From NCBI GenBank assembly GCA_016177405.1, contig JACOVG010000006.1, positions 10,064 to 74,063 on the forward strand: a stretch of 64,000 nt of DNA, in the 5' to 3' direction. Below the pieces are notes generated by a model. The model saw nothing but the letters and a program-made list of their open reading frames with translations, was not told the origin of the DNA and ran no database searches. How positions within the stretch are numbered: the stretch's first letter is position 1; every line of letters starts with the position of its first letter. The stretch comes from Candidatus Omnitrophota bacterium (GTDB lineage Bacteria; Omnitrophota; Gorgyraeia; 1-14-0-20-64-10). The position numbers and the translations under genes are program-made. Shown here one piece after another: positions 13,385 through 53,568 of this stretch.

Positions 13385-14108
13385 GGGCCTTCAGCCAGAA
13401 TTCCACTTGCGGGATCTGCCACTGGTAATCCACGTCAAGCCCTCCCCACTGCTTGAGGGGGTGAATCTTCCTGCCCATCCACCTTTGAGGCAGCAAGCCG
13501 TCCTCGAGGTTGTCCAGACACCTGGGACGGACCACCGAAACCCCCATGTCGGCGAAGTAGACCTCCCCTTGCGAGTCCCGGTCGCAGTTAAGGCTTTGTG
13601 GGTTGCCTATCGCTTCAAAAGGGACAAAGGGTTGAAGGAACCCTTCGGGCCCCAGCCGCCGCGCCCGCAGGGGACTCCACATGTTGTAGGCCGAAACGGA
13701 GACGGCCGAATCGATTGAGGGGTCCTCCCTCAAGACTCGGATTCCCTCTTCGATCAGGCGGCTGGTGACCGTGGGGGCGTTGCAAAAAAGAAGCACCAGA
13801 AGCTCGGGCTTGTCCCCGCGGGAGGCGAGCCGGCCGCAAATCTCCCGGTAACCGTGGCGGAAGACCTCCTCTCCGAGCGCGGAATCGGCCGCCAGTTCCG
13901 GGGGCCGGACGATCGGCTCCGCCCCGCGGCCGGCGGCGATCTTCAGGATCTTCTCCGAGTCGCTCGATACGAAAAGCCGGTCCACCCCCTTGGCGTTGGA
14001 AGCGGCCTCCAGCGGGTACGCCATCAGCGGCTTTCCCAGAACCGGATACCAGTTCTTGCCCGGAAAACCCTTGCTCCCCTCCCGCCCGATCAAGAGCGCG
14101 GCGATCAT
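13368..14108 (-). CDS. Acylneuraminate (nonulosonic acid) cytidylyltransferase, NeuA family
   Basis: ATG at 14108 (MIAALLIGREGSKGFPGKNWYPVLGKPLMAYPLE) = CMP-NeuAc synthetase N-terminal signature; ATGA overlap with upstream stop. Confidence 0.75.
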   Translation of the reverse strand: MIAALLIGREGSKGFPGKNWYPVLGKPLMAYPLEAASNAKGVDRLFVSSDSEKILKIAAGRGAEPIVRPPELAADSALGEEVFRHGYREICGRLASRGDKPELLVLLFCNAPTVTSRLIEEGIRVLREDPSIDSAVSVSAYNMWSPLRARRLGPEGFLQPFVPFEAIGNPQSLNCDRDSQGEVYFADMGVSVVRPRCLDNLEDGLLPQRWMGRKIHPLKQWGGLDVDYQWQIPQVEFWLKAHGADV

Positions 14109-14953
14109 CCCGCCGCCTCCACGGGCTTCACCCCCGCAAGCATCCATCCCCGGTCGTAGGCCACGCGGATCTGCCCCAGACCGGCCTGCCCCATCAGCCG
14201 GATGGCGCCCTCGCGGCTGAAGCGATGCTCCAGCGGGGCCGAAAAACGGTCGTAAAGATCACCCACCAAGCTTAAGGGTCCTTGGCCGTGCCGGTAAGGC
14301 AGCCGCTTGACCCAGGAAGAGAGGACCCGAACGTCTTTGGCGAGGCGGTACGGCAAGGTGAAGGTAAGCCACGCCAGGGGAGAGCCCAGGACGCAAAGCC
14401 CGTAGAGCAGGCCCGGCGGGAGCCTGCGCGTGATCCCTCTGGTGAGCCGGGTCAGCTTCAATCCCAGACGCCAGCTTACGCTCCGGTCGCTCATGTCCTC
14501 GTAAAGATAAATGGCGAGGGCGGCACCCGGCTTGGCCAGGTGAACCAGCTCCTGAAGCCCCCCCAAGGGAGAAGCCATGTGGTGGAGCACCCCATAGGAG
14601 TAGATGAAATCAAAACAACCCGGCCCGAAGGGAAGCCGCTGGATGTCGGCTTGAAGGATCCGGGCATTGGAAAGGGATCGCGTCCTGGCGAAGCTGGCCT
14701 GGGACCCGCCCGGGCTTAGCTCCACTCCCACCAGTTGAGCCTGGGGGTGGCGCACGGCCTGGAGATAAAGGTCGATTCCGTTTCCGCAGCCGGCGTCCAG
14801 AACCAAACCCTTCAAAGGGGCGAGGTGAAGGCCTTCCCGCATCCGGTCAAAGTGGTAAGCCGGGGGGAGAGTTCCCTGACGCCTTTGGGAAGCCGACCAG
14901 AGATACCCGTAGCGGCTGGAGGTCTCCGATTCCACGCTCGCAAGACTAGGCAT
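14105..14953 (-). CDS. Class I SAM-dependent methyltransferase
   Basis: ATG at 14953; motif I LVLDAGCGNGIDL, acidic motif II, VLHHMASP (methyltransf_11/12-like). Confidence 0.7.
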   Translation of the reverse strand: MPSLASVESETSSRYGYLWSASQRRQGTLPPAYHFDRMREGLHLAPLKGLVLDAGCGNGIDLYLQAVRHPQAQLVGVELSPGGSQASFARTRSLSNARILQADIQRLPFGPGCFDFIYSYGVLHHMASPLGGLQELVHLAKPGAALAIYLYEDMSDRSVSWRLGLKLTRLTRGITRRLPPGLLYGLCVLGSPLAWLTFTLPYRLAKDVRVLSSWVKRLPYRHGQGPLSLVGDLYDRFSAPLEHRFSREGAIRLMGQAGLGQIRVAYDRGWMLAGVKPVEAAG

Positions 14954-15959
14954 GAACCTTCCCAGCCCCCAGCTTTTCCAGCTCCATGGCCCGGTAGGAG
15001 CAGCGGTCGCAGGCCTGAAGCTTGTGGGCCTGCCCCTCGGCATGAAGCCGCCGGTACCGAGAGGCCTCTTCCGAAAGCCACATCGACCGTATCGATTGGG
15101 CCCCGGCCCTTCCGAGGGCCAAGAGAGAGAAGTCTGAAACGCCGTGCATCAGGCACGGCAGGGCGGTGCCGTCCCACAGGATGGTCATCCTCTGCCACAG
15201 GAAGGGACAGGCCCAGTCCGCGACGAGCCCCCGGTGATCGTCCTCCGGCCCCTCCCGGCGGTGGTCGAGATAGGCGATTTCATCGGCCGTGGCTTCCCAA
15301 AAATTCACGTACTCGGAAAACCGCTCCCGGAGCTCTGCGAGCATCACGGACTGCACCCTGATCTGCGGGATTCCCAGGCCCCGCTCATCCCGGAGGCGCC
15401 GCAGGGTCTGGACATTCGCCACCACCCGCTCAAATTGGGCCCCCACCCGATAAGCCTCGTAGGATTCCTTGGAGGTCCCCTCGAAAGAGATGGAAATCCG
15501 ATCCAGTCCGGCATCGATCAGCCGGTGGATCAGGGCCCCCGTCAAGAGGGTCGCGTTGGTGTTGAAATAAACGTCCAGAATCCCCTTCTGCTTGGCGTAC
15601 GCCACCATCTCCGGAAGTTTCGGGTGCAGGGTGGGCTCCCCCCGGAAGCTAAGCTTGATGGAAAAAAGCCCTTCCGCCGCACCTTCATCGATGATCCGGG
15701 TAAAGAGCTCCCACTTCAGATATCCCGGAACCTCCGGGCCCCAATTCTTCATGGTGGTGGCGCAGAAGGGGCAGCGCAGGTTGCACACGCCGGTTGATTC
15801 GATGTCCAGGTGAATCGGGAACTCCCCCACGGTGAAGCGCTCCGGAAACTGGGCCCAGCGCCTGCGGTACTCCTGAAAGCGCGGATCTTTCAGCCGCGCG
15901 TCAAAAACGCTGGATTTCCCCACCGTGTGGAAATTGGGGTTGGCTCGGGCTCCGCTCAT
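14946..15959 (-). CDS. Radical SAM enzyme with C-terminal SPASM domain
   Basis: CNLRCPFC (CxxxCxxC) radical SAM cluster; C-terminal Cys-rich CPFLWQRMTILWDGTALPC...CDRCSY consistent with SPASM auxiliary cluster domain. Confidence 0.8.
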   Translation of the reverse strand: MSGARANPNFHTVGKSSVFDARLKDPRFQEYRRRWAQFPERFTVGEFPIHLDIESTGVCNLRCPFCATTMKNWGPEVPGYLKWELFTRIIDEGAAEGLFSIKLSFRGEPTLHPKLPEMVAYAKQKGILDVYFNTNATLLTGALIHRLIDAGLDRISISFEGTSKESYEAYRVGAQFERVVANVQTLRRLRDERGLGIPQIRVQSVMLAELRERFSEYVNFWEATADEIAYLDHRREGPEDDHRGLVADWACPFLWQRMTILWDGTALPCLMHGVSDFSLLALGRAGAQSIRSMWLSEEASRYRRLHAEGQAHKLQACDRCSYRAMELEKLGAGKVHA

Positions 15960-16540
15960 CTCTTTTTGATCACCCGCGCCTGAAACTCGATCTCGTCAAA
16001 CCCGCCCACCCAGTAGCACCAGATCCGCTGGGTCCACCGAACGTTGAGGTTCGCCAGGCCGTCGATCGCGCGCGAGATCGCTTTGCGCAGCCAGGTGGTT
16101 TGCGCCCTCGGGCGCATCCAGTGCAGCCGCACCCTCTCCACCTGGAAATGGCAGCGGCCATAGCGCTCCGAATGGCCGGGGTCGAAATGGTCGAAAAGAC
16201 CCACCCCCACGGCCCGCTTGTGACCCGGGTGGGTCCAGTTGCAGGAGTAGTGGGGCACGCGTATCTCCAACCGGGCCCCGTGCGCGCAAATCCGGTACAG
16301 CTCTTGGATCACCCCGATCGTGTCTTCCAAGTGTTCCAGGCAATGATCCATCACCACCTCCCGGACCGATCCCTCCTCGAAAGGCCACGGAAAAAGATCC
16401 AGGTCGTGGACGACGTCCGGCGTGGGACCATTTCCGTTGTTGTCCACGTTGAGGAAACCGGCGATCCGGCGGCCGCCTGAACCGATGTTCAGCCTCAAGA
16501 GAACCCTTTCAGGGGTTTGGACGAAACCCGCGTCAGACAT
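15956..16540 (-). CDS. Class I SAM-dependent methyltransferase (Methyltransf_11-like)
   Basis: RVLLRLNIGSGG motif I; ATG at 16540 lies 5 nt after upstream stop (ORF-track GTG 16564 would overlap upstream gene). Confidence 0.65.
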   Translation of the reverse strand: MSDAGFVQTPERVLLRLNIGSGGRRIAGFLNVDNNGNGPTPDVVHDLDLFPWPFEEGSVREVVMDHCLEHLEDTIGVIQELYRICAHGARLEIRVPHYSCNWTHPGHKRAVGVGLFDHFDPGHSERYGRCHFQVERVRLHWMRPRAQTTWLRKAISRAIDGLANLNVRWTQRIWCYWVGGFDEIEFQARVIKKR

Positions 16541-18092
16541 CGATTGGGTCGAGGACTCCAACACCCAAGTACTCCTCTCTGAATTTCACCTGCAGATTCT
16601 TGTACTGCGCGTCTCCGGCCTCACTCATCTGTTCCGCGAGGCGGATCTGCGGATGGACGGGTTCTGGCATCGTGACGTAAAAGCTGAAGGTGCGCTCCAA
16701 GCCCAGGATCTCCTCCCGGGAGAGCTGGGGCATGTTCAGCGTGCTTGCGTCAGGGTTATCCAATGAGCAGATGGTGCCGGGGTCGAGGTACCCTTCCCGG
16801 ATGGCCAGCTCTCTTAACGGCGTTCCGTGGAAGGGGGCGAAGATGAAGGCGCCGGAGCATTCCACCCCCTTGGGCAGCTGGCGGTTGAATTCGATCGTGT
16901 CGAAGATCAGATCCCGCGTCTCCAGGGGCATCCCGATGATGCTGTTTCCGTTGGCGGCGTATTTCCGGCCGGCCACCGCCCGGAAGGCCTCCAGCATTCG
17001 CTCGTTGGAGAGTTTCCTTTTCAGAACCTTCTCCCGGTACTCGGGGTTCCCATGCTCGATGCCCATGCTCATCCTAAGGCAATTCATCCGTTCGAGCCAC
17101 CCGGCTCTTTCTTCGGTGATGGTCTCGCAGCGGGTGTTCATCCAGAAGGGGATCTTAAAATCCAGGTACATGTTGGCCAGCTCCAGAAACTCCCCGTCCC
17201 CCATGGCGAGAAAGGTGTCCACCACGAAGTAGATGAGCTCCGGCTGATACTTTTCCTTGAGGAACTTAAGCTCCGCGTGCACGCGGTCCATCCGCTTCTT
17301 CCGGTAGAACCGCCCGCCCTTGTCGTTGGCGTAGGCCAAGTTGTTGGAGGGGGAGTTGCAATAGGCGCAGGTGTAGGGGCAGCCCCTCTGGGTTTCCATG
17401 CCGACCGTGCGCCAGATCTTGCCCATCATGGGCCGGTAAATGCTCTGGGGATCGAACAGATCGAAATCCGGGTAGGGAAGGCTGTTCAGATCCAGCGTCT
17501 GGCGCATCGGATTCTGGTAAATCTGGCCATCCTGTTTCACCCAGAGGTTAGGGGTGTCCTTGACCGGCAGCCCGCGGCAGAGTCTAAGGCACAAGTCCAG
17601 CAGGGCCTCCTCCCCTTCCCCGCGGCAGACGTAGTCGACCGCCTCTTCCCGGACGATCTTGTCCGGCGCGTAGGTGGCGAAGACCCCGCCGAAGAGAACG
17701 GGCGGACGCCCCTTCAGCGACTGGACCAGCCGGAGGCCGACGGTGTAGGTGTTCTCCACCACCGAGACCGCGATGAGATTCGGCTGGAATTCATCCACCT
17801 TTTTCTGAAAGTCCAAGAACATATCGGTCTCCACGGGGCGGATGCCCCTCTCCTCCCAGCGGAAGGGGCGCAGGGCCGAGTGGAAGTACGGGTAGTTGGC
17901 GCCGAAGGGATTCTTGTAAAAGGTGCAGTCAAAGAGGTCCACGGTGAACCCTTCCTGCTTGAGGACCGCGGACAACAGTCCCAGACCGGTGGGCATTAGG
18001 GCGCGCATCTCGATGTTCGGGTAAAGGAACAAAACCCGGAAATCCTTGGGGTTTCTTCCGTTGCCCATCGGTGTGGTGTTGAGTGAAATCAT
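16533..18092 (-). CDS. Cobalamin (B12)-binding domain radical SAM enzyme (class B), probable C-/unactivated-position methyltransferase
   Basis: N-terminal B12-binding-like VLFLYPNIEMRALMPTGLGLLSAVLKQEGFTVDLFD...; radical SAM CPYTCAYC; ATG 18092 with GGGAGAAGG SD. Confidence 0.8.
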   Translation of the reverse strand: MISLNTTPMGNGRNPKDFRVLFLYPNIEMRALMPTGLGLLSAVLKQEGFTVDLFDCTFYKNPFGANYPYFHSALRPFRWEERGIRPVETDMFLDFQKKVDEFQPNLIAVSVVENTYTVGLRLVQSLKGRPPVLFGGVFATYAPDKIVREEAVDYVCRGEGEEALLDLCLRLCRGLPVKDTPNLWVKQDGQIYQNPMRQTLDLNSLPYPDFDLFDPQSIYRPMMGKIWRTVGMETQRGCPYTCAYCNSPSNNLAYANDKGGRFYRKKRMDRVHAELKFLKEKYQPELIYFVVDTFLAMGDGEFLELANMYLDFKIPFWMNTRCETITEERAGWLERMNCLRMSMGIEHGNPEYREKVLKRKLSNERMLEAFRAVAGRKYAANGNSIIGMPLETRDLIFDTIEFNRQLPKGVECSGAFIFAPFHGTPLRELAIREGYLDPGTICSLDNPDASTLNMPQLSREEILGLERTFSFYVTMPEPVHPQIRLAEQMSEAGDAQYKNLQVKFREEYLGVGVLDPIDV

Positions 18093-18101
18093 CCTTCTCC
18101 C

Positions 18102-19934
18102 TTAGACGTGAACGACCTCTTGCGCCGCGGCCGCGGTTCTGGGGGAGCCTAAAACCGACTGAACCCTCTGTGGGTCATAAGGCGAAAAAACTTGGGTCAC
18201 CCAGGGCCGGCTTGAATCGCTCTTAGGACTCGAAAGGTTTCCGACCTCCTCCAGCACCACTTGACGCAGATTCGTGTCGGTCGCCATCGGAACCGAGTGG
18301 GGATAGACCCCGCCGACATCCAAGAGCTGCCCCGAGCGGTAATTCACAACCCGCTTTCCCATGGCGAGCGCTTGAAACCCAACGGAGCTCGCGGTAAAGA
18401 GGACGAGATCCGCCTCTTTCAGATCTCTCTTCAGGTCGGTGAAATCGGCCGGCAGAAGCCTCGCCGGAAAACGGATCTCGCTGGCCCGGATGGGGTGCAG
18501 CGGATGGTGGCGAATCCAAAATCGAAGGCCTTCTTCTTGCCCTCCCCCCGGAAAGTTCAGGCGCAGCGCTTCCAGCAGATGCGCCGCCATCGGTGGATCG
18601 ATGGGAAGAGCCACCAAAATGTTACCTCCTCTGGGCTGGCGGCCGTTCCCCTGGCAGGCGCCAAGGGCTTCATCCGAAGAAAGCTCCCGATACCGGATCG
18701 ACCCGGTCAACCGCAATTTCCCCGGCGGAATCCCTCCGGCCTGAAGGAGCCGGTGGCCGTAGGGGCCGGAGGTGAAGATGATGTCCGGCAGGGGCATGCG
18801 TTGGGCTTCCCCCTTTCCGAGAAAGTAGGGCAGGTAAAATTCCGAAAGGATGATCGCCTGATAGGCGGCCGTGCGGACCCCATGCGCCTGGGCCGCCAGA
18901 ACCAGCAGCTTCTCCCAAGGTTGATTCTCATACGAGTAGACGACCCACCGCCAGTTTCCCTTCTCCAACAGGCGGCTGGCCGTCTCATAAAAGAGCCGAA
19001 AGGCGCACAACGAAGCCCGCCCAACCTCCAGCCATTGCTCCCTGTGAATGAGCCAGGTGACCGGTCTGCCGCCAAGGGTCAAGGGCAGCGGGTCCCCAGG
19101 CCAGGTCATCGCCTTAAAGGAGCGCCAAATCGCTTGCCGGGTCGCCCAGAGGATGAGGGGTTGAAAATAATCCGAGCGCATGGCCAAGGGCCGTTCGTAC
19201 CCGCCGCAATCCGGCGACGAAAACCGAACCACGTCCCAGCCGGATTCCGCGAGCAGTTCCTCCATTCCGGGGAGGTGGTGGTCCTCCCATTGGCGGGGCC
19301 CCTTGAAGCTGCTGGGCTGCGGATAAGAGAAGAGGGCGATGGCCGGATCTCGTGGAACGAACCTCTCCCGGCTGGGCCACACCCGCCGTTGCCGGCGCCG
19401 ATCCGAGAGTGTTTTGATCAACCACCGAACCCGCTTGAGCAGGCCCGCCGCGACGACCCTCCCCTTGGCCGCCAACAGCGAGGATTCGCCCACGACCCGG
19501 ATCCGCGAATCGGCACCCCCCAGGTTCTCTTGAAGCTGTCGAAGCAGCCACGGATCCTCGACCACGATGAGGAGCGCTTCATGGCGCTTGATGGCTTGGG
19601 TCACCTCATCGTGCGCCAGATGGAGATAGCAGGCCAGCAGAAAAAGATCCGAGGCGATCCACATCTTCCAGGAGAGCCGGGTGGACCACCAGGTAATGGG
19701 ATCCTCCTGGCCCGCGCCCACCTGGGCGACCAGATCCAGAAAGGGCTGGCGCAGCGCCCGGGCTGTTTCGTGGAGCTTCTGGGCGCTGTCCCAGGGCGCC
19801 AATCCCAAAGCGGCTTGCGCCTGGGCCCTGAACCGGACGTTCTTGCCCAGGTAAAGCCATTGTTTAAAATCCGTTCGACCTCGAAGTGCCCGCCGAAGAT
19901 GGGCCGGAGAGGTTACGACGATGGGTTCAGACAC
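18102..19934 (-). CDS. Hypothetical protein (610 aa) conserved in glycan cluster context
   Basis: Long ORF, GTG start at 19934, co-directional and overlapping upstream stop; no catalytic motif recognised. Confidence 0.5.
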   Translation of the reverse strand: MSEPIVVTSPAHLRRALRGRTDFKQWLYLGKNVRFRAQAQAALGLAPWDSAQKLHETARALRQPFLDLVAQVGAGQEDPITWWSTRLSWKMWIASDLFLLACYLHLAHDEVTQAIKRHEALLIVVEDPWLLRQLQENLGGADSRIRVVGESSLLAAKGRVVAAGLLKRVRWLIKTLSDRRRQRRVWPSRERFVPRDPAIALFSYPQPSSFKGPRQWEDHHLPGMEELLAESGWDVVRFSSPDCGGYERPLAMRSDYFQPLILWATRQAIWRSFKAMTWPGDPLPLTLGGRPVTWLIHREQWLEVGRASLCAFRLFYETASRLLEKGNWRWVVYSYENQPWEKLLVLAAQAHGVRTAAYQAIILSEFYLPYFLGKGEAQRMPLPDIIFTSGPYGHRLLQAGGIPPGKLRLTGSIRYRELSSDEALGACQGNGRQPRGGNILVALPIDPPMAAHLLEALRLNFPGGGQEEGLRFWIRHHPLHPIRASEIRFPARLLPADFTDLKRDLKEADLVLFTASSVGFQALAMGKRVVNYRSGQLLDVGGVYPHSVPMATDTNLRQVVLEEVGNLSSPKSDSSRPWVTQVFSPYDPQRVQSVLGSPRTAAAAQEVVHV

Positions 19935-21313
19935 AAGGTCTTCTCTGCGGCAAGCTGCGGGGCTTTGGCTCCGGCAGGAAACCCCTGGGCCGCCAGCAGG
20001 TAACGTTGGATCTCCCGCTCAAACCGGCCCGCCAGCCGGCGGGCCTGAAGCGGAAACCAGCAGTTTCCGATGGGATCCCGTCGGATTTTGAACGTGTACG
20101 CCTCAAGGGCCTTGGCTTGGGCTAAGACCCAAGGCTCCCGCCACCTGGAGTCCTCCTCCGCGCTCGGCGGCTGTCCCAGATCCGCCAGGACCGTGTGGAC
20201 CAGTTGAGAAAGAGCAGAAACAGGCCTTGGGAAATGGCAGACGTCTCGGAGAATCGCTTGAGCCTCGGCAGAGTGCTCAAAAGGCTCTCCGGGCCCTTTG
20301 GGCTGAATCTGGTTTACAAAAGCGAACACCTCATCCCAAGTTTCAGGAACCTTCAGGTGATCGATGATGGGGTAATGGTTTTGCTGGAAGTGGTCTGTGT
20401 GCTCGGCCAGCCGAGGCCCCACCAACCCCGTGAGGTTCAAGGCCGGCTTGCCCGCAGCAACGGCCTCAAAGAAGGTGGTGGAGTTAAAGCCGGCCATCAG
20501 CTGAATTTGGTCCAACCACGACTCAAACGGGAGCTCTTCTCCGCCGGTATGCAGCGTGGGGCTGTATCGGTCCTCAAAATAACGCCAGCTGCGGCGGTCC
20601 TCCTGTTGGTGGGGGCGAAGCCAAACCCTCTGCCCGCGACGCCGACATTCGTCGAAGAAGGTCAGCAGAACGCGCAGGTAGGACGCCTCAATCCACAAGC
20701 GGTCTTCAAAGTATCTCGCTTTGGATTGAAAGCCCCAGTGGGTTCCCCGATGCAGGTCAATCTTCTTCAGCATGGACTCGGGGACGATGGAGTTGAACAG
20801 GGGGAAACTGCTGACCACCCCGATGGGAACCCGCTGCGCCCCCAGGGGTTTTCTGGCTTGAGCCGCCGCCAGAAAGAAATCCATGCGGGGGGCACCGGTC
20901 ACCGGAAGCTGTTCTTCGCGGAAGCGGCCGGTGGCCAGAAGCACCCGGCGGCTGTAGTCCCCCCACAGAAAAAAACGATGGATGCTCTGGATGTGCCTCT
21001 GCCAACAATCTGGATCCGAGCCCCCGCCATACTTCACCAGGAGAGGCCCCTCTTCAAAGACCGCTCCCTCGGTGGCCAGCATGTAGATCTTTGTTCTTCG
21101 CGTGATCTTGGGGTAGGTATCGTAGATGATGTTCATCGGAGTGGCGATCACGGCGGCCTCGCACGGCAGCGCGTTGAGGATGGGGTTCGTCGTCCGGCGC
21201 GTGGACAGCAGGGCGCGGGCCCCCGCTTTTTCAAAGAGCCTCGCCAGCGCGATGAGAACCGGACCGTCCCGGCGGGGGTCTTCCATGTGGATGAGAATCC
21301 GCGGGCGCCTCAT
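19913..21313 (-). CDS. Hypothetical protein (466 aa), possible surface-carbohydrate biosynthesis protein
   Basis: Long co-directional ORF; no motif recognised by eye. Confidence 0.5.
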   Translation of the reverse strand: MRRPRILIHMEDPRRDGPVLIALARLFEKAGARALLSTRRTTNPILNALPCEAAVIATPMNIIYDTYPKITRRTKIYMLATEGAVFEEGPLLVKYGGGSDPDCWQRHIQSIHRFFLWGDYSRRVLLATGRFREEQLPVTGAPRMDFFLAAAQARKPLGAQRVPIGVVSSFPLFNSIVPESMLKKIDLHRGTHWGFQSKARYFEDRLWIEASYLRVLLTFFDECRRRGQRVWLRPHQQEDRRSWRYFEDRYSPTLHTGGEELPFESWLDQIQLMAGFNSTTFFEAVAAGKPALNLTGLVGPRLAEHTDHFQQNHYPIIDHLKVPETWDEVFAFVNQIQPKGPGEPFEHSAEAQAILRDVCHFPRPVSALSQLVHTVLADLGQPPSAEEDSRWREPWVLAQAKALEAYTFKIRRDPIGNCWFPLQARRLAGRFEREIQRYLLAAQGFPAGAKAPQLAAEKTLCLNPSS

Positions 21314-21319
21314 GGAACC

Positions 21320-22321
21320 TTAGAGCCCCTTTCTTGCGTACAAACGGAGGTTGTCACCCTTGTCCGCGCGGTTGATGAACTCCTGGAACGGTTCCTCGGC
21401 GTCTGCCGGGATGGGCAGATTCCAGCCGGCGAAAACCTCCGGATAGGTCCCAAAGGTTTTCCGAATGTGAGCCAGATCCAGCCCCCGGGTGTGGACGGAC
21501 TGAATGGCGAAGCCCGCCTTTTCAAACTCCCGGGTGAAGGTGGCCGGGCTGTAGTGCCTGATGTGGACGTCCGGAGCGACGATCTCGGAGTAGAGTCCCG
21601 TCACAAAAACATTGAAGCTGTCGAAGTTCTCCGTGTACGCGAAGACCCACCCGCCGGGCTTCAGGACGCGGCGGATCTCGCCCAGCAGATGACCGGGATC
21701 CTCCACGTGCTCCAGCACGTCCCACGCCGTGACCACATCAAAGAACTCCTTTGGAAAGGAGGCCTCTTGCAGGGTGCCGGATCGAATCCTGGAAAGCCCA
21801 AGCTCCTCGTTGGCAAAACGGACCATCGCGGGATTGGGCTCGACGCCATAGACCTCGTACCCATGGGAGTCCGCCACCTTGAGAAAGTGGCCGGAACCGC
21901 AGCCCACATCAAGAAGTCTCCCCGCGGGAACGCGCGGGCGGATGAGGTCGCAGACCCTTTCCCGGAAGATGGTGCTCATCCGGTATTCCGCGGAAGGCAG
22001 GTACATTTGGCTGAAGACCGAGGTGAAGCGGCCCGTGCGATACTGCCGCTCAAGCTGCTCCCGGTTCGGTCTGGGCGAGGGATAGACCAACCCGCAGTCC
22101 CGGCAGCGGCGGTACGGAAAGCGCTCCCTCTCAAAAAGAATCTCTTCCGGAGCAGGCGCTCCGCACAGCGAGCAGTCCACCCGCGTCACCTTGGCGGGAT
22201 CCAATCCCCCGCCGGGGTCCCAGTAACCCCTCAAGTCCGTCACCATCTGCCGCGTGATCCGCTCGGTAACACCGGAAGGCTGGAGCTTGGAAAGATCGAG
22301 GGTGGCGGTTGGCGCGTTCAT
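21320..22321 (-). CDS. SAM-dependent methyltransferase with N-terminal zinc-ribbon
   Basis: CSLCGAP...CRDCG zinc ribbon followed by LLDVGCGSGHFL motif I and VLEHVEDP; 333 aa. Confidence 0.75.
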   Translation of the reverse strand: MNAPTATLDLSKLQPSGVTERITRQMVTDLRGYWDPGGGLDPAKVTRVDCSLCGAPAPEEILFERERFPYRRCRDCGLVYPSPRPNREQLERQYRTGRFTSVFSQMYLPSAEYRMSTIFRERVCDLIRPRVPAGRLLDVGCGSGHFLKVADSHGYEVYGVEPNPAMVRFANEELGLSRIRSGTLQEASFPKEFFDVVTAWDVLEHVEDPGHLLGEIRRVLKPGGWVFAYTENFDSFNVFVTGLYSEIVAPDVHIRHYSPATFTREFEKAGFAIQSVHTRGLDLAHIRKTFGTYPEVFAGWNLPIPADAEEPFQEFINRADKGDNLRLYARKGL

Positions 22322-45513: not shown

Positions 45514-45525
45514 GGGCTTAGCGTC

Positions 45526-46866: not shown

Positions 46867-47813
46867 GGGGCCGCCTGGAGGGCGGGCGCCCCCCGGAAGA
46901 ATGGAATCAGATTCTGGACCGCCCGCAGCTCCATCCGCGTCCTGGAGGCCCGGGTAAGCGAGGCGATGTGCGGGGTCAGCAGAACCTGCGGCATATGAGA
47001 CAGCGGGCCCACGTAAGGTTCGGTCTCAAAAACGTCCAGCGCCGCGGAGGAAAGACGGCCCGATTGGAGGGCCCCCACCAAGGCCGCCTCATCCACCAGA
47101 TGGCCCCGGGCCGTGTTGACCAGCCGGGCGCCCGGTTTCATCTGGGCAAACTCCCTGGAGCCCAAGACCGGCCCCTGTCTCGGGTCCCTTGCCGCGTGCA
47201 GGGAAACCAAATCGGACTGCGCCAGAAGGTCAGCCAGCGGCAGATTCGAGACCCCTTCCGGGCGCTGTCCTGCCGGGAGGACCGGGTCGCAGACCAGGAT
47301 CCTGGGCCCAAAGGGGCGCAGGAGTTTTTCCACCGCCTGGCCGACCCGGCCAAACCCGATCAAACCGATGCTCCACTCCGAGAGAAGATGCCCCACCTGT
47401 TTTTTCCAAAGACCCTGATCGAGATTCCTCAAGTGAAGGGGAAAATCCCGCGCCAGGGCCAGGATCATGCCGACCGTGATCTCCGCCACCGGGGCAGTCA
47501 CTTCCTCGGGCGTGGTGAGAACCGCGATCGCAAGTTCGGAAGCCGACGCCAGATCGATGGAATCGGTCCCTGTGCCGCATCGGCTGATCACCTTGAGATT
47601 CTTCAGGGACTGAAGAAGCCTTCTGTCGTAGGGCTCCACACCGGCCACGACCGCATCCGCCCGCGCGAGCAGGGAGGCCATCTCCTCTCCCTTCAAGCGC
47701 CTGCCCAGAGGGTTACGATGAATCTCAAAGCCGGCCTCCCGGAGAAGCTGAAGCGGCCGGTCGTCCGACTCGCCAAATTGCGCGAGCGCCACAAAAACCA
47801 CCGGCTGTTTCAC
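46863..47813 (-). CDS. D-isomer-specific 2-hydroxyacid dehydrogenase (PGDH-like)
   Basis: IGLIGFGRVGQAV NAD-binding motif; catalytic-domain/NAD-domain architecture, 316 aa. Confidence 0.8.
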   Translation of the reverse strand: MKQPVVFVALAQFGESDDRPLQLLREAGFEIHRNPLGRRLKGEEMASLLARADAVVAGVEPYDRRLLQSLKNLKVISRCGTGTDSIDLASASELAIAVLTTPEEVTAPVAEITVGMILALARDFPLHLRNLDQGLWKKQVGHLLSEWSIGLIGFGRVGQAVEKLLRPFGPRILVCDPVLPAGQRPEGVSNLPLADLLAQSDLVSLHAARDPRQGPVLGSREFAQMKPGARLVNTARGHLVDEAALVGALQSGRLSSAALDVFETEPYVGPLSHMPQVLLTPHIASLTRASRTRMELRAVQNLIPFFRGAPALQAAP

Positions 47814-48583
47814 CCCTTCAGCACCTGATGAAGAACCGCCCTCTGAAGGGGATCCTGGTCCAGGAGGTGTTCCACGGCTTTCACCTCGCCTGGGAGGTTG
47901 ATCCCCGCATACCCTCGAGGGAAGGCAATCCCCTGCAGGAGGACGTCGTGCTCCAGGATTCTGGATTGGTCCACCGACTCCAGGGTCTCAAGCGGCGTGC
48001 GGGCAAGTCCAGGATAGCGTTGAAGAAAATCCTGCCGGTAGCCCAAGATCCCCAGGATCTTACGCACCGGCTGCGCCCCGTTGCCGGCCGCCTTCAGGTG
48101 GGAGAAATTCCGGCCGCAAAAGAGTATCCTCCCGGAAACCGAAACGACGCACTTGACAACCGAGGGATCACCAAGCTCGCCAGGGGTTTCCAGAGAGGCC
48201 ACGGCGTTCCAAGCGGCCAGCTCGGGCCGCTGCCCGATGGCCTGAACCAGGCTCTCTAAATCACGAGGCAAAACCAGGATCTCATCCCCTTGAACATTCA
48301 CCACATGGGTGCAGTCCAGCTTCCCCGCCGCCTCCGCCACCCGGTCCGTTGCCGCCGGATGCCTGGAGGAAGTCATCAGCACCCGGCCGCCGGAACGCTC
48401 AACCACTTGGGCGATCTGGCGATCGCAGGTCGCCACCACCACTTCCTCGAAGCCCTTGCACAGCGCTGCCCTGCGGCGGACGTGCTCGATCATGGGGAGG
48501 CCCCGGATCTCCACCAGGGGCTTGCCCGGGAATCGACTGGAGGCCATCCGGGCCGGTATGATGCAGGCCACCCGCGTGCCCAT
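47810..48583 (-). CDS. KdsB-like cytidylyltransferase (CMP-3-deoxy-ulosonic acid synthetase family)
   Basis: ATG 48583 (TAATG overlap with upstream stop): MGTRVACIIPARMASSRFPGKPLVEIRGLPMIEHV matches KdsB IIPARYASTRLPGKPL; ORF-track 139-aa extension is read-through across upstream gene. Confidence 0.75.
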   Translation of the reverse strand: MGTRVACIIPARMASSRFPGKPLVEIRGLPMIEHVRRRAALCKGFEEVVVATCDRQIAQVVERSGGRVLMTSSRHPAATDRVAEAAGKLDCTHVVNVQGDEILVLPRDLESLVQAIGQRPELAAWNAVASLETPGELGDPSVVKCVVSVSGRILFCGRNFSHLKAAGNGAQPVRKILGILGYRQDFLQRYPGLARTPLETLESVDQSRILEHDVLLQGIAFPRGYAGINLPGEVKAVEHLLDQDPLQRAVLHQVLKG

Positions 48584-49344: not shown

Positions 49345-50093
49345 AGGGTCATGGCGGTGAACCCGCCGTCCACGGTCACCACGGAACCGGTCACGAAACT
49401 CGAGGCGTCAGAGGCCAGCCACAGGACCGCCCCCACCAATTCCTCCGGCTTGCCGAACCGCCCCGCGGGGGTGTGATTCAGAATCTTGGCCTTCCGGTCG
49501 TCGTCGATGAAGTTTTTCATGCTCCAGGCGGTCGGGAAAAAACCTGGTTTGAGGGCGTTCACCCGGACGTTGCGAGGGGCCCATTCCCGGGCCAGGTTTT
49601 GGGTTAGGTTCAGGACTCCCGACTTGGCGGCCGAGTAGACAAACGCCTTGGAAAGGGGCGGCCCGGCGGAAACCGAGGTGAAATTGATGATAGAACCTCT
49701 GCGCTGGCGGACCATCGTCTCCCCGAAGACCTGGCACCCCAACAGGGTGCCCAGGAAGTTCACCCCCATCACCCGGTCAACTTCCTGGCGCGAAATCTTC
49801 AAAAAGGGGGTGGGGGCGTTGGCCCCGGCGCCGTTGATCAGCAGGTCAATCCGCCCATGCGCCTTAAGGATCTTCTGCCTGCAGCGAATCCAGTCCTCTT
49901 TTCGGGTCACATCGCAGCGGAGATACCCCACCGAGCCCGGCAGCCCCGCTTGACGCGCCTTCTTCTCACCGGCTAAATCCAGCACGGTCACGCGAACACC
50001 CGCCTCATCCAACGCTTGGGAGATGACAGCGCACAGATGTCCCGCGCCGCCCGACACGGCGGCCACCCTGCCGGAGAGATCAGCGTTGTTCAA
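49341..50093 (-). CDS. SDR-family oxidoreductase
   Basis: RVAAVSGGAGHLCAV; INGAG; YSAAK; start ambiguous (TTG 50093 or TTG 50159). Confidence 0.75.
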   Translation of the reverse strand: MNNADLSGRVAAVSGGAGHLCAVISQALDEAGVRVTVLDLAGEKKARQAGLPGSVGYLRCDVTRKEDWIRCRQKILKAHGRIDLLINGAGANAPTPFLKISRQEVDRVMGVNFLGTLLGCQVFGETMVRQRRGSIINFTSVSAGPPLSKAFVYSAAKSGVLNLTQNLAREWAPRNVRVNALKPGFFPTAWSMKNFIDDDRKAKILNHTPAGRFGKPEELVGAVLWLASDASSFVTGSVVTVDGGFTAMTL

Positions 50094-51192
50094 GGGGCGC
50101 GGCCTCCAACGGACCCGCGGCAGGGATCGGCTGCGGGAGCCGTTCGCCGATGTATTCAAAATAAGGGTTGTTGGCCACCTTCTCGTTGAAGAAGAAGGCC
50201 CGCCGGGGATAGAGGTAAGGGGCCGAGAAGATGGGGCACACGGCGAAATGGAGCCGGCGGCGGGTGGGAATCCAGAGGGGATAGTCCGCCACGGTCAGGT
50301 CGGTGTCGTACGTGGGCCGCGATTGAATCCTGTTCACCAGAAAGAGGAAACGGGCATTCTGGACAGGGGCCGAGTCGGTGTAGAAGCTGAACCATTCCGG
50401 GGACATCTCCCCGAAGGAAGCGCAGTTGAAGACCAGGTCCACCGCCTCTGGCGCCAACCCGGCGAATCGCGGACAGGGCAACAGAACAAAGTCATACTGC
50501 CGGATCCAGCTGCGGGTCAGCACAGGCTGCCGGAGGACCTCGCGGATCCCGGCCACGCGGGCCTTTGGCAGCCACCTCTTCAGGAAGTAGTGGGCCAGGA
50601 GCAGCTGCTCGGAGAAATCGGCCAGGACCTGGTGGGTTCCCCTATACTCCTGGCTCACCAGACCGGAAAAGATACCGTAGCTTGAGCCGATGTCCAGAAC
50701 CACGTCGCCGGCCGCCAGGCGCTGCCCGAGCTTCTCCTTAAGGACCGCCTGGCACCAGATGTGCTTGAGCCACCGGTAGGTCACCACGAAGCCCTTGCGC
50801 CGGTAAACGAAGGGCTCCCCCACCGGCGTGCAGGGATACTTTCGAAGCAGGTCCTCCGCGGCGGCGCTGCCTTGGATCACCTGAAGACACTCCTCCAGCG
50901 TCTGGCGGACCCCGCGGCGGCCTCCCCCCAGGAAATTCCTCGGGTCGGGACGGTTGATGTGAAAGGTGGGGTCATCCGGAATGAAGATCCGAAGGCGGCG
51001 AAATCGCCGGAAGGTCTCGGGTTCGATGGAACCGTCTGGCCGCAGGAGCCGTTTGGGCTCCTCCGTGATCAGCGACCGCCATTTTGGGATCAGCGCCTGG
51101 GCAGGCAATCCCAGTAGTCCGGCTCCGCGGGCCGCCTGGGCATCGGCCTGCACCTGGGCCAGCACCTCCTCCTCCCGAAGGCGATCAGGCAT
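50080..51192 (-). CDS. Non-canonical methyltransferase-like protein (putative sugar O-methyltransferase family; degenerate Rossmann motif)
   Basis: ATG 51192 (MPDRLREEEV); VVLDIGSSYGIFSG degenerate motif I; architecture paralogous to 52579..53568. Confidence 0.5.
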   Translation of the reverse strand: MPDRLREEEVLAQVQADAQAARGAGLLGLPAQALIPKWRSLITEEPKRLLRPDGSIEPETFRRFRRLRIFIPDDPTFHINRPDPRNFLGGGRRGVRQTLEECLQVIQGSAAAEDLLRKYPCTPVGEPFVYRRKGFVVTYRWLKHIWCQAVLKEKLGQRLAAGDVVLDIGSSYGIFSGLVSQEYRGTHQVLADFSEQLLLAHYFLKRWLPKARVAGIREVLRQPVLTRSWIRQYDFVLLPCPRFAGLAPEAVDLVFNCASFGEMSPEWFSFYTDSAPVQNARFLFLVNRIQSRPTYDTDLTVADYPLWIPTRRRLHFAVCPIFSAPYLYPRRAFFFNEKVANNPYFEYIGERLPQPIPAAGPLEAAPLEQR

Positions 51193-51928
51193 TCTTAACG
51201 CAGAGAAACCCGCAGAAGTTGTACCACTGGAAGAAGGTCTCGGCGATTTGAAAGCCGCATTTCCGGAAAAGCTCCAGGTTCTCGTCCAACTTGAAGGGAA
51301 CAAGAACGTTCTCCAAGGCCTCCCGCTTGCGTGCGATCTCCTCGTGGGTGTAGCCATTCCTCTTCTTGAAGGCGTAGTAGCGTTCGATGAAGAACTGGTT
51401 CATCTCGCCCTGGCGCGTGAGGATCTTCTCGGTCACGATGAAGGCGCCGCCGTTGACCAGCGACTCATAAATGTGCCTCACGAGGCGATCCCGATGCAGG
51501 GGGCGCACAAACTGCAGCGTCCAGCACAGCGTCACAACGCTCGCCTTGTCCAGACACAGCTCCGGATCGCTCACGTCCCGGCAGTGGATCTCCACCGTCT
51601 CCTGAAGCTTGCTTTCCGCCACGCGGGCCTTCGCCCGCTGGACCATGGGCTCCGAGGAATCGTAGCCCACCAGCCGGGCGCTCTGACCCTGCAGGGCGCT
51701 GGCAACGTTGACGAGGGTGGTCCCGGTCGAGCAGCCCAGGTCGTAAACGCGCGTGTTGGGGACCCAGAAATGCCTGGCCAGCTCCTGGATCAGGTGCTGC
51801 TGTTCCCGGTAGAAGGGAACGCTGCGCTCGAGCATATCGTCGAATACGGCGGCCACCTCGCTGTTGAACTCAAAGTCGGTCGCCCGAGAGGCGGTGCCTT
51901 GAAAGATCTGGTCCCTGCTGTCAGCCAT
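51185..51928 (-). CDS. CmoA-family protein (carboxy-S-adenosyl-L-methionine synthase homolog)
   Basis: ATG 51928 with AGGAGGA SD; full-length collinear similarity to E. coli CmoA: ...AAVFDDMLERSVPFYREQQHLIQELARHFWVPNTRVYDLGCSTG... / ...KKRNGYTHEEIARKREALENVLVPF...FQWYNFCGFLCVKNA vs CmoA ...[21 protein letters not shown]...FQCFNFGSLVALKA. Confidence 0.75.
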   Translation of the reverse strand: MADSRDQIFQGTASRATDFEFNSEVAAVFDDMLERSVPFYREQQHLIQELARHFWVPNTRVYDLGCSTGTTLVNVASALQGQSARLVGYDSSEPMVQRAKARVAESKLQETVEIHCRDVSDPELCLDKASVVTLCWTLQFVRPLHRDRLVRHIYESLVNGGAFIVTEKILTRQGEMNQFFIERYYAFKKRNGYTHEEIARKREALENVLVPFKLDENLELFRKCGFQIAETFFQWYNFCGFLCVKNA

Positions 51929-52577
51929 GGGGGTCCTCCTGCTTGCTAAGCAAAAACATCGCGTCCACGTTGTCACCCTCTTTGTACGGGTACCGTTCCT
52001 CCTTCAGGAGTTTGAGATCCGGAAAGGATTCCCGGTAAAGACGGGCAAAATCGCCTTTCCAAAGGAGATCCTTGCGCCCCTGGTACAAAACCGTTTCGTA
52101 CCGGTCCGAGAAGTACTCATAGCCCCAGATCCACCCGCGGCTGCAGCGCCGGATCTCCAAGAGCGCGCGCCGCAGGTCCGAGGGAGACACGTGGATCAGG
52201 ACACCGGAGGTAAAAACCAGATCAAAGGAGCCTGCCTGGAAGGGGATCTCCAGGGCCGAACCCTGAACGATCCGAAGGCCCCGGGATCTGGTCTTGGCCT
52301 TTCGCGCGGCATCCCCCTGCAGCTCAATACCGCAGAGGTTCGTAAAGCCCATCCTCTGAAGGCACAAGAGCTGAATTCCAATGTTGCAGCCGACCTCCAG
52401 GATCCGCGCCGCCCGGTCCAGGCCTCCGATGAACCGCTCGTTGAGTTCGGTCCTGGTCCATCCCAGACGGCTCCGGAAACGCTCCTCTAACTCTTCTACC
52501 GAGATCTCGTTGCGGTCGGTATAGTCCCTCCCGAACTCCCCCGCCCACTGGGCCATTTGAGCGGTCTGGGAAGCCAT
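51921..52577 (-). CDS. Class I SAM-dependent methyltransferase (pseudaminic-acid-cluster-associated methylase-like)
   Basis: ATG 52577 (MASQTAQMAQWAGEFGRDYTDRN); ILEVGCNIGIQL motif I; VLIHVSPSD. Confidence 0.65.
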   Translation of the reverse strand: MASQTAQMAQWAGEFGRDYTDRNEISVEELEERFRSRLGWTRTELNERFIGGLDRAARILEVGCNIGIQLLCLQRMGFTNLCGIELQGDAARKAKTRSRGLRIVQGSALEIPFQAGSFDLVFTSGVLIHVSPSDLRRALLEIRRCSRGWIWGYEYFSDRYETVLYQGRKDLLWKGDFARLYRESFPDLKLLKEERYPYKEGDNVDAMFLLSKQEDPHG

Positions 52578-52578
52578 C

Positions 52579-53568
52579 TTAGGCCTCACCGGCCAGGTGA
52601 ACCAGCCGGTGCCAGGTGGGACCGTCAAAATGGTTCACCCACGGGATCCTCATTCCCAGCCACCGGGGGCCTGGGGCAAGGGTTTGGGCCTCGAGGTAGT
52701 GGACAAAATAGGGGCAGGGACCCTCTAAGAAGATCTGGTCCCTGGTCGACCAGGGGTAATCGTGAAAGCTGGCCACCTCGCCGCCCGGCAGCTTCTTGTA
52801 GAGACGGTTAGAGCAGTAAAAACGGGAACTGGGGCCGCTTCGTTTTCTTAAGAATGAGAAATAGGCCTGGATGTTGGCCGGGGTCATCTCCTGCATGCTG
52901 ACCAGGTTGATGGCGCAGTCGATCTTCTCTTCGATCCGCTCGATCTCCCGGCCAAGGACAAAGGTGACAGCCGCCGGAGACCCGGTCGCGCCTTCGGAGG
53001 GCAGCACCCGCATGGAAATCGGCTCGCGGGAAAAAGCCTTTTGATAAGTGCACAGCTGGAACATCAGCGTCTTGGGCAAGTCAATGGCGAAGATACGGGT
53101 CGATTCCAAACCGAACCGCCGAAGGATGAGCGTCCCCAGGAATCCATCACCGTCTCCGATCATGGCGAAGGTCTTGGGTGCAAGCCCCTGCGCGCGGAAA
53201 TGCTCTTCCAGAATGGCCACGACCACGGCAGACGACCACTCATGGCGGGTCAGGGAAAGCCCCAGGTCGCGAGCGAGGGCCTTCGCATGCGCCCAGGCCG
53301 AAGGGAAGGCTCGAAGGGTGCGGGTGTACGGCAGGTACGAGAGCCGCTCCAAGCCGTAGAGCCCCCGGCCCAGCCAACCCGTCTTACTGTGGGAGGTGAA
53401 CCCTGCCCCGTGCAGAAACAGGCGATCGCCCCGGCGCTCGACCGTCATCTGCCTGGCATACCGCTTCCAGAGGGAGCTGGCCTCCTCCGGAACAGAGTCC
53501 TGCTCAATCACCGTAAGCAGGGACTCGGCAGCGGGACTTAGGGGATGCTCTCCAACCATGCTGTTCAT
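52579..53568 (-). CDS. Non-canonical methyltransferase-like protein (putative sugar O-methyltransferase family), paralog of 50080..51192
   Basis: FAMIGDGDGFLGTL degenerate motif I; similar length/architecture to 50080..51192; ATG 53568 or 53559. Confidence 0.5.
   Translation of the reverse strand: MNSMVGEHPLSPAAESLLTVIEQDSVPEEASSLWKRYARQMTVERRGDRLFLHGAGFTSHSKTGWLGRGLYGLERLSYLPYTRTLRAFPSAWAHAKALARDLGLSLTRHEWSSAVVVAILEEHFRAQGLAPKTFAMIGDGDGFLGTLILRRFGLESTRIFAIDLPKTLMFQLCTYQKAFSREPISMRVLPSEGATGSPAAVTFVLGREIERIEEKIDCAINLVSMQEMTPANIQAYFSFLRKRSGPSSRFYCSNRLYKKLPGGEVASFHDYPWSTRDQIFLEGPCPYFVHYLEAQTLAPGPRWLGMRIPWVNHFDGPTWHRLVHLAGEA

Follow-up and report, generated by a model that had tools for sequence, protein, structure and literature searches.

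A predicted carboxy-SAM synthase and its overlapping neighbour in a methyltransferase-rich surface-glycan locus of Candidatus Omnitrophota: possible O-carboxymethylation of a sugar

What does a surface-glycan locus do with ten methyltransferase-fold genes, and do all of them methylate? The question is raised by a 64-kb stretch of contig JACOVG010000006.1 of a Candidatus Omnitrophota metagenome-assembled genome (MAG), analysed here in its entirety and called the window, for which the original prediction had proposed a heavily O-, N- and C-methylated glycan. Pfam and NCBIfam scans were run on every tiled open reading frame (ORF). The window is one co-directional minus-strand surface-glycan supercluster of at least 64 kb, as about 58 tiled minus-strand ORFs span its whole length, adjoining or overlapping one another in their longest forms, with gaps of at most 92 bp in the ORF listing. 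Its proposed nature as a glycan locus is borne out by NeuB, cytidylyltransferases, DegT aminotransferases, glycosyltransferases, an ATP-binding cassette (ABC) exporter and a nucleoside diphosphate (NDP)-6-deoxyhexose pathway. One of the ten genes encodes a predicted synthase of carboxy-S-adenosyl-L-methionine (carboxy-SAM), and we judge it moderately probable that the locus directs carboxy-SAM-dependent O-carboxymethylation beside ordinary C-, O- and N-methylation.

The argument centres on four genes, named here, like the others of the ten, by the low-coordinate (stop) ends of their minus-strand ORFs, which is how the ten had originally been listed:

50080-51192, minus strand: TIGR04371-type "sugar O-methyltransferase", partner of CmoA (TIGR04371, 79.5 bits; cutoff 44)
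51185-51928, minus strand: CmoA-family carboxy-SAM synthase (TIGR00740, 230.4 bits; cutoff 193.3)
51921-52577, minus strand: methylase associated with pseudaminic acid biosynthesis (TIGR03587, 162.6 bits; cutoff 112; Methyltransf_11, 55.6 bits)
52579-53568, minus strand: methyltransferase, sister family of 50080 (TIGR04371, 33.1 bits, below the cutoff of 44)

The product of 51185 covers positions 1-239 of the 239 positions of TIGR00740 and aligns end to end with E. coli CmoA (4GEK, 153 bits) and H. influenzae YecO (1IM8, 150 bits). Known CmoA carboxylates S-adenosyl-L-methionine (SAM) using prephenate, and the E. coli enzyme does not transfer methyl groups (PMC10491745). Its Arg199, a residue that ordinary methyltransferases do not conserve, forms a salt bridge with the carboxy-SAM carboxylate (PMC3663124). 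Among the contact positions described in the latter work, 51185 keeps Y39, D62, G64, S66, D89, D117, F137, E164 and R199, with substitutions at N132 (to Cys), N90 (to Ser) and A70 (to Thr). The NCBI pipeline also names it CmoA (MBI1952788.1), while 50080 is called a "putative sugar O-methyltransferase". Judged by these features of its sequence, 51185 is a predicted carboxy-SAM synthase and not a user of a methyl donor. It is tightly coupled to its neighbours: its start overlaps the end of 51921 by 8 nt, and its end overlaps the start of 50080 by 8 nt, the ATG of 50080 lying that far inside the CmoA gene. Since 51185 belongs to the CmoA family, the overlapping partner 50080 is more likely to be a carboxymethyl- than a methyltransferase, and part of the glycan probably bears carboxymethyl in place of methyl groups.

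The partner is not a member of the CmoB family, the classical recipient of carboxy-SAM; it has no Pfam hit and no match to the CmoB models TIGR00452 and Methyltransf_9, though a CmoB-like way of working is possible. Its AlphaFold model, with a predicted local distance difference test score (pLDDT) of 96.5, shows a Rossmann methyltransferase core after a unique helical domain of about 130 residues. Foldseek against the PDB returned generic methyltransferases only (NNMT, MfnG and OvoM, TM-score of about 0.35); CmoB took rank 30, and the comparison is uninformative. A profile search against PDB sequences gave only motif I/II fragments at E > 0.1. The sequence search found 108 homologues of 50080; among 1.84 billion representatives, the family comprises 106 clusters (50% identity) at E <= 1e-30 and the wider superfamily 960 clusters at E <= 1e-10. 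The family has an atypical GSSYG loop, and four basic residues in its unique N-terminal domain, R65, R93, R140 and H144, are nearly invariant (>=90%). In known systems the extra carboxylate of carboxy-SAM is recognised by Lys91, Tyr200 and Arg315 of CmoB and by a key Arg of phage CmoX (PMC10491745, PMC12783734). The resemblance of the basic residues of the 50080 family to this mode of carboxylate recognition is suggestive only.

The sister family offers a useful contrast. Gene 52579 has the canonical GDGDG loop, and its family shows GxGxG and lacks R93, R140 and H144; the profiles of the two families match (hhalign probability 97.7%, E 2.5e-12). The AlphaFold model of 52579 has a pLDDT of 93.5, and its top 50 PDB matches are all SAM methyltransferases. 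One member of the sister family, P0431 (549 aa), is fused to a HAD phosphatase domain, which hints at a phosphorylated intermediate, sugar or acid, as the substrate of this family.

Is the pairing of CmoA and partner an accident of this genome? Related loci were reached by two routes: a one-genome-per-species scan for close relatives of the window CmoA, giving 24 loci, and the search for the partner, in which the contigs of eleven of the 108 homologues were looked up. The partner has a CmoA-family gene no more than two genes upstream in 11 of the 14 partner loci examined, and a twelfth locus has in that place a 236-aa methyltransferase whose likeness to CmoA is unverified. In the window and in loci L007, L010, L031, L032, L039 and L040, the partner has a canonical CmoA as its immediate upstream neighbour; in L037, the canonical CmoA is the second gene upstream. 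These proteins score 225-254 bits on TIGR00740 where scored (232-254 bits for L031, L032 and L037). In L007, a Planctomycetia MAG, CmoA is 78% identical to that of the window and the next gene is a partner 70% identical to 50080 (83 bits on TIGR04371); in L010, another Omnitrophota MAG, the values are 61% for CmoA and 44% for the partner, again the next gene (76 bits). The CmoA proteins of L039 and L040 are 51% and 55% identical to that of the window. L007 also shares the HAD hydrolase, two short-chain dehydrogenases, the cytidylyltransferase, the 2-hydroxyacid dehydrogenase, a homologue of ORF 45526-46866 and a GT2/GT-C-like gene. All verified paired loci are CMP (cytidine monophosphate)-sugar, NeuB or Kdo-type glycan loci, and they come from Planctomycetia, Omnitrophota and Nitrospirae MAGs or from unassigned metagenome contigs. 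The two loci in which the partner has no CmoA-type neighbour, L035 and L038, lie outside glycan loci, and their partners are 37-40% identical.

In three of the paired loci the upstream gene belongs to a divergent CmoA-like clade, whose full-length matches to TIGR00740 (122-130 bits) fall below the cutoff. A 236-aa protein of this kind is encoded directly upstream of the partner in L033 (9211-9921) and L034 (9212-9922); in L036 the gene (3983-4693) is upstream as well, with an rve-type insertion sequence between it and the partner. The CmoA-type proteins of this clade are 27-31% identical to the canonical ones, whereas the partners beside them remain 41-58% identical to the others. The partners being conserved though the CmoA clade is divergent, the neighbour has been replaced by a member of the same family while the association was kept, and this replacement argues that the partner needs a CmoA-type activity. 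A mirror-tree comparison of CmoA and partner gave a weak correlation (r = 0.39-0.52) and is not used as evidence of co-evolution, though it brought the exchange of CmoA clades to light. No CmoB homologue adjoins CmoA at the 24 loci of the closest CmoA relatives or at the partner loci.

The neighbourhoods of these CmoA genes hold further observations. In L008, L009, L011, L013, L015, L016, L020, L024 and L029, the gene next to the CmoA relative encodes a class I methyltransferase-fold protein of about 250 aa (for example, L013:1681-2436), which belongs to no curated family and is not CmoB; in L030 (557-1357), the neighbour is a PEMT/ICMT/LmtA-like membrane methyltransferase. The CmoA relatives with such non-CmoB neighbours come from Acidobacteriota, Nitrospirota, Myxococcota and Gammaproteobacteria MAGs, and either kind of neighbour may be a carboxymethyltransferase that has escaped recognition. 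Near CmoA, an asparagine-synthase-like amidotransferase is a repeated finding (L007:17681-19546, L027:5807-7684, L032:1643-3550 and 17097-19103, L009, L010 and L011); this recalls the amide ligase CmoY of phages, but such genes are common in glycan loci anyway. A large protein of the new Pfam family PF27878 (PFTS_polysacc) is encoded beside the CmoA pair in L031 (5412-7454), L033, L036 (2070-3986), L037 (4120-5991) and L040 (7306-9240); in L033, an insertion sequence interrupts this gene just upstream of the pair, and BLAST found no homologue in the window.

What the pair could act on is suggested by the products predicted from gene content, namely a nonulosonic acid made by the NeuB route, a 3-C-methyl-6-deoxyhexose and a CMP-activated acid. 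The last of these would come from a recurring module in which two short-chain dehydrogenases stand with a CTP_transf_3 cytidylyltransferase and a 2-hydroxyacid dehydrogenase; a HAD hydrolase co-occurs. The genes of the window that bear on the acidic sugars and on amidation are:

7830-8585, minus strand: CTP_transf_3 cytidylyltransferase (Pfam)
13368-14147, minus strand: CTP_transf_3 cytidylyltransferase (Pfam)
22922-23749, minus strand: NeuB-family nonulosonic acid synthase (Pfam NeuB, 244.7 bits)
30975-32840, minus strand: glutamine-dependent asparagine-synthase-like amidotransferase (Pfam Asn_synthase, 333.7 bits, and a GATase domain)
46863-47813, minus strand: D-2-hydroxyacid dehydrogenase, in the recurring CmoA-containing module (Pfam 2-Hacid_dh_C, 162 bits)
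47810-48583, minus strand: CMP-(ulosonic) acid cytidylyltransferase of the recurring module (Pfam CTP_transf_3, 121.6 bits)

The cytidylyltransferase 47810 (a gene call of 257 aa in L001) has homologues of 54-60% identity in L007 and L039, where homologues of the dehydrogenase 46863 (58-60% identity) also lie near the CmoA pair. As the window has three CTP_transf_3 genes but one NeuB-type enzyme, at least one CMP-activated acid is probably made by an unrecognised route. NeuB itself, the sole NeuB-type condensing enzyme of the window, has 275 aa and no SAF domain, and the equivalent module of L039 and L040 contains an HpcH/HpaI aldolase.

In the mechanism that we propose, CmoA would convert SAM and prephenate to carboxy-SAM, and 50080 would transfer the carboxymethyl group from it to a sugar hydroxyl, giving an O-carboxymethyl ether. 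The acceptor would probably be on, or beside, the CMP-activated ulosonic acid. The new carboxylate might then be amidated by the asparagine-synthase-like amidotransferase, which could amidate a carboxyl group, or esterified by the methylase 51921. This step is speculative and would mirror those of CmoM on tRNA and CmoY on phage DNA. The remaining eight genes would be ordinary tailoring methyltransferases, serving the making of the 3-C-methyl-6-deoxyhexose, methylation linked to nonulosonic acid synthesis, and other targets.

Such a division of labour has precedents outside glycans. Four uses of the rare cofactor carboxy-SAM are known, the acceptors being tRNA, a peptide made on ribosomes, a peptidyl-nucleotide and phage DNA, and besides CmoB it is passed to other methyltransferase homologues, TglF, MccB's C-terminal domain and phage CmoX, each of which uses basic residues for the carboxylate (PMC10491745, PMC12783734). 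The window resembles CmoA/CmoB (5-oxyacetyluridine, cmo5U, in E. coli tRNA), TglE/TglF (3-thiaglutamate), MccS/MccB (microcin C) and phage CmoA/CmoX/CmoY (5-carboxymethylcytosine in DNA) in having an Arg199-bearing CmoA beside a methyltransferase-fold protein, and the phage system also in having a partner other than CmoB and an asparagine-synthase-like amidotransferase in the same locus. It differs from all of them in that the partner is a TIGR04371-type homologue with an N-terminal domain of its own and stands in a CMP-ulosonic-acid glycan locus, so that a carbohydrate would be the acceptor. A carbohydrate acceptor for carboxy-SAM is not listed in the 2023 review (PMC10491745) or in the 2025 paper on CmoX (PMC12783734). 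Methyltransferase-rich nonulosonic-acid loci, the families of 3-C-methyltransferases and pseudaminic-associated methylases, and the chemistry of carboxy-SAM are already known; our literature search found no report of the implication, for a glycan locus, of an annotated CmoA together with a "sugar O-methyltransferase". If the proposal is true, carbohydrate would be the fifth acceptor class of carboxy-SAM, and bacterial surface glycans would gain a new acidic substituent, adding 58 Da where annotation predicts 14 Da, whose carboxylate could, as in phage CmoX/CmoY, offer a site for amidation or esterification. It would also mean that chemistry of another kind can lie behind the automatic labels "methyltransferase" and "sugar O-methyltransferase" given to genes of glycan loci. 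The wider proposal, that CmoA and the TIGR04371-type protein form a dedicated sugar O-carboxymethylation system spread through the CMP-ulosonic-acid loci of uncultured phyla (Omnitrophota, Planctomycetota, Nitrospirota and others), is put forward more tentatively.

Several points weigh against carboxymethylation. The literature search gave no natural O-carboxymethyl sugar in these pathways, which fits either the novelty of the modification or its non-existence, and nothing relevant on carboxymethylated nonulosonic acids or O-antigens, on CmoA in polysaccharide loci or on TIGR04371. The two family members without a CmoA neighbour (L035 and L038) have R65, R93, R140 and H144 as well, and no residues were found that separate CmoA-linked from unlinked members of the partner family. 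At the position of Arg199, the divergent CmoA-like clade shows Gln, followed by an Arg at the next residue, and its product is uncertain. The loci examined are 14 of about 108 of the partner family.

How much ordinary methylation stands beside the pair depends on the other genes. Together with 50080, 51185, 51921 and 52579, the ten comprise:

14105-14953, minus strand: class I SAM methyltransferase with a C-terminal hydrophobic segment (Pfam Methyltransf_11, 57 bits; cutoff 21.2)
15956-16540, minus strand: small (194 aa) class I methyltransferase (Pfam, 22.7 bits, below the cutoff of 27)
21320-22321, minus strand: zinc-ribbon class I methyltransferase (Methyltransf_23, 97.8 bits)
22318-22920, minus strand: class I methyltransferase directly downstream of NeuB (Methyltransf_25, 80.4 bits; motif ILDLGCGKG)
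36630-37859, minus strand: NDP-4-keto-6-deoxyhexose 3-C-methyltransferase with an N-terminal zinc ribbon (Pfam Methyltransf_13, _23 and _14)
39085-40008, minus strand: zinc-ribbon class I methyltransferase with a C-terminal transmembrane helix (Methyltransf_23, 87.9 bits)

All ten have the class I SAM-methyltransferase fold with an intact glycine-rich loop, in agreement with the count originally given, and seven (14105, 21320, 22318, 36630, 39085, 51185 and 51921) pass the Pfam gathering scores of class I methyltransferase domains. None looks like a pseudo-methyltransferase, a possibility raised with the original prediction: the glycine-rich motif I is found in 10/10 and the acidic residue ending beta-2 in 9/10, with Gln in its place in 39085. 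Loops other than GxGxG occur (GSNDG, GCERG, GSSYG, GCSTG and GCNIG), but such loops are also found in 36630 and 51185, whose families include characterised enzymes (MtmC/TcaB9 and E. coli CmoA, respectively). The three zinc ribbons that had been claimed were recovered, as paired CxxC motifs occur only in 21320 (CSLC and CRDC, C50/C53 and C73/C76), 36630 (C7/C10 and C50/C53, Pfam Methyltransf_13) and 39085 (CPVC and CLAC, C93/C96 and C116/C119). The last has a GCERG motif I, an uncertain start codon and a hydrophobic segment at residue 358 of its long ORF; 21320 is named a class I SAM-dependent methyltransferase by NCBI (MBI1952759.1). Gene 14105, whose ATG at 14953 overlaps the upstream stop, shows motif I VLDAGCGNG and the beta-2 acid E. 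It was tried as a CmoB candidate and rejected, its scores of 38.9 bits on TIGR00452 (cutoff 275) and 31.8 bits on Methyltransf_9 reflecting the Rossmann core only. Gene 15956, with motif I LNIGSGG and the beta-2 acid D (NVD), is part of a family with 96 homologues, Methyltransf_11/23 hits being found in many of them; it shares 100% identity with MBI1952755.1, a protein from a Candidatus Omnitrophica MAG.

Two of these genes can be assigned more closely. The C-methyltransferase originally seen in 36630 is well supported by its PDB matches, 339 bits to MtmC (4RV9, the D-mycarose 3-C-methyltransferase), 281 to KijD1 and 270 to TcaB9, and by the 4-keto-6-deoxyhexose genes around it, and we are confident in predicting an NDP-sugar 3-C-methyltransferase of the TcaB9/MtmC type. 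The assignment of 51921 to the pseudaminic-acid-associated methylases (TIGR03587) is likewise well supported, NeuB and CMP-transferases in the window marking a nonulosonic-acid locus. Thus, eight of the ten genes are best read as true SAM-dependent methyltransferases: the 3-C-methyltransferase, the pseudaminic-associated methylase, two zinc-ribbon enzymes, three generic ones and the TIGR04371-like one with GxGxG.

The exceptional density of methyltransferases claimed for the locus stands against the genome background but not against related loci. Ten methyltransferase-fold genes among 37 tiled genes give a binomial P of about 2e-9 at a background of 2% and about 1e-5 at 5%, this range being an assumed rate; the related environmental loci L031, L032, L034 and L039 are about as dense, with 4-5 methyltransferase-fold genes plus radical SAM genes per about 20 genes. 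The density is therefore a trait of this class of loci and not unique to the window. The heavily methylated glycan is in part upheld, by C-methylation (36630) and the pseudaminic-associated methylase (51921), and in part not, as 51185 is CmoA and the number of genes is not the number of methyl groups.

This last point leads to the alternative that survives best, namely that the gene count overstates the chemistry, with redundant or alternative methyltransferases in a mosaic locus and a glycan whose methyl groups number well below ten. Two methyl groups are the work of three methyltransferases in Tannerella forsythia (PMC6120980), and homologues of the window genes are scattered singly over other loci (15956 in L031, 36630 in L015, 52579 in L039, with 47% identity, and 21320 in L032), which points to mosaic assembly. 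Against this, all methyltransferase genes are intact and tightly packed in a one-strand train with overlapping stops and starts, and the population contigs L001-L006 keep the gene order over the covered parts of 43-63 kb, a coverage that takes in only four methyltransferase-fold genes, at 50-53.6 kb. As an account of the whole locus we find it doubtful; redundancy is plausible alongside the proposed carboxymethylation.

Another view is that all ten are ordinary SAM methyltransferases and the glycan is heavily O-, N- and C-methylated, as originally proposed, the CmoA homologue being re-purposed or irrelevant and 50080 a normal sugar O-methyltransferase. The shared fold and cofactor loop of all ten, the name of TIGR04371 ("putative sugar O-methyltransferase"), the two partner-family members without a CmoA neighbour and the ability of CmoB-type enzymes to use SAM as well (PMC10491745) would agree with it. 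We hold it to be unlikely, as 51185 scores above the CmoA equivalog cutoff with Arg199 and other contacts kept, the E. coli homologue is no methylase, and the pairing both recurs in 11/14 loci and survives replacement of the CmoA clade. Still less likely, in our view, is that cmoA is a housekeeping gene for tRNA cmo5U that happens to sit in a glycan operon and leaves the glycan unaffected. Its established role is indeed in tRNA wobble modification (PMC3663124, PMC10491745), and the plain pipeline name is CmoA, but the gene is coupled by overlaps on both sides to glycan methyltransferase-type genes, the same adjacency is found in unrelated phyla, and CmoB is missing beside the 24 closest relatives and in the partner loci. 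Finally, capping of the chain by some of the methyltransferases in the manner of WbdD or WsaE in an ABC-transporter-dependent pathway, which had also been suggested, is improbable: terminal methylation as a stop signal is documented in work cited in PMC6120980 and an ABC exporter is encoded (29038-30882, minus strand, fused ABC_membrane and ABC_tran, Pfam), but the exporter is a fused transmembrane and ATPase half-transporter of the MsbA/PglK type and not Wzm/Wzt, none of the ten methyltransferases is fused to a kinase, coiled-coil or glycosyltransferase module, and nothing in the window marks a capping enzyme or specifically supports the idea.

With carboxymethylation beside ordinary methylation as the preferred reading, the locus can be set against characterised glycosylation systems. 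It resembles the O-glycosylation cluster of T. forsythia (Pse5Am7Gra, 4-O-methyl sugars, three methyltransferases) and the flagellin islands of Campylobacter in combining NeuB, CMP-transferases, aminotransferases, an acetamidino-type amidotransferase (WbuX), an amide-forming AsnB homologue, several methyltransferases and a 2-hydroxyacid dehydrogenase, a possible source of a glyceroyl-type acyl group, in one polycistronic cluster. The window differs from them in its length, over twice theirs, in its ten methyltransferase-fold genes and three radical SAM genes, and in CmoA; it shows how heavily Omnitrophota and similar uncultured bacteria may tailor their surface glycans. Neither flagellin or Maf genes nor a recognisable oligosaccharyltransferase were found in the window, and the host is an uncultured Omnitrophota bacterium.

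The 3-C-methyltransferase 36630 shares three domains with MtmC, KijD1 and TcaB9 (zinc ribbon, Rossmann and C-terminal; 270-339 bits) and is accompanied, as MtmC-type genes are, by a nucleotidyltransferase, a 4,6-dehydratase, an epimerase and a 4-reductase, though here in a surface-glycan locus and there in antibiotic loci:

35746-36618, minus strand: RmlD-like NDP-4-keto-sugar reductase (Pfam RmlD_sub_bind, 217.6 bits)
40761-41210, minus strand: epimerase of the NDP-6-deoxyhexose module (Pfam dTDP_sugar_isom)
41203-42282, minus strand: 4,6-dehydratase of the module (Pfam Epimerase/GDP_Man_Dehyd)
42243-43247, minus strand: nucleotidyltransferase of the module (Pfam NTP_transferase)

The reductase 35746 is the last step of this branched 6-deoxyhexose module.

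Radical SAM chemistry may add to the tailoring. Three genes, all with CxxxCxxC, were recognised:

14946-15959, minus strand: radical SAM/SPASM enzyme (Pfam Radical_SAM and SPASM; CNLRCPFC at residue 59)
16533-18092, minus strand: B12-binding radical SAM enzyme, class B (Pfam B12-binding and Radical_SAM; CPYTCAYC)
61691-63334, minus strand: second B12-binding radical SAM enzyme (Pfam B12-binding, 70 bits, and Radical_SAM, 82 bits; CPGKCTFC)

Two B12-binding radical SAM genes had been placed between 14105 and 53568; there are indeed two, but 61691-63334 lies outside this part. Both resemble the class B methylases GenK, Fom3 and PhpK in their B12-binding and radical SAM domains with CxxxCxxC in a sugar pathway and, to judge by these domains, may methylate unactivated carbons; they differ from them in that the best NCBIfam hits (HpnJ, P-methyltransferases, BzaD and AprD4) are all far below the equivalog cutoffs. 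A homologue of 16533 with 44% identity is present in L034. The small methyltransferase 15956 and the radical SAM/SPASM gene are adjacent in the window (14946-16540), and a similar methyltransferase, 61% identical, adjoins a radical SAM/SPASM gene in L031 (13768-15499), which suggests a second conserved tailoring pair.

Beyond these genes, Pfam and NCBIfam identified three DegT aminotransferases in the window, a PIG-L deacetylase, a formyltransferase-like protein, a UDP-GlcNAc 2-epimerase, the WbuX N-acetyl-sugar amidotransferase, an amidase, a GNAT acetyltransferase, several short-chain dehydrogenases and a HAD hydrolase. Glycosyltransferase families are represented by seven genes (five GT2 and two GT1-type), including a GT2 fused to a weak PMT_2-like polytopic domain at 43261; a stand-alone PMT_2 (GT-C-like) polytopic protein is encoded at 37846. 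Long ORFs on the plus strand (for example, 60412-61908 and 58394-59596) gave no family hits and were rejected as shadow ORFs of GC-rich DNA, the guanine-cytosine (GC) content of the window being about 0.62. The same sequence occurs in the Logan assemblies SRR121134xx, and its proteins in the NCBI MAG are MBI1952755 to MBI1952790. On the minus strand, ORFs 463-2337, 8582-9745 and 45526-46866 have no Pfam or NCBIfam match, and ORFs 53611-55263 and 55271-57595 have no match in Pfam, NCBIfam or the PDB; the latter encodes an unclassified polytopic protein of 774 aa with about seven hydrophobic segments. The products of ORFs 18102-19934 and 19913-21313 weakly match the Leptospira-type "surface carbohydrate biosynthesis" families TIGR04326 and TIGR04396.

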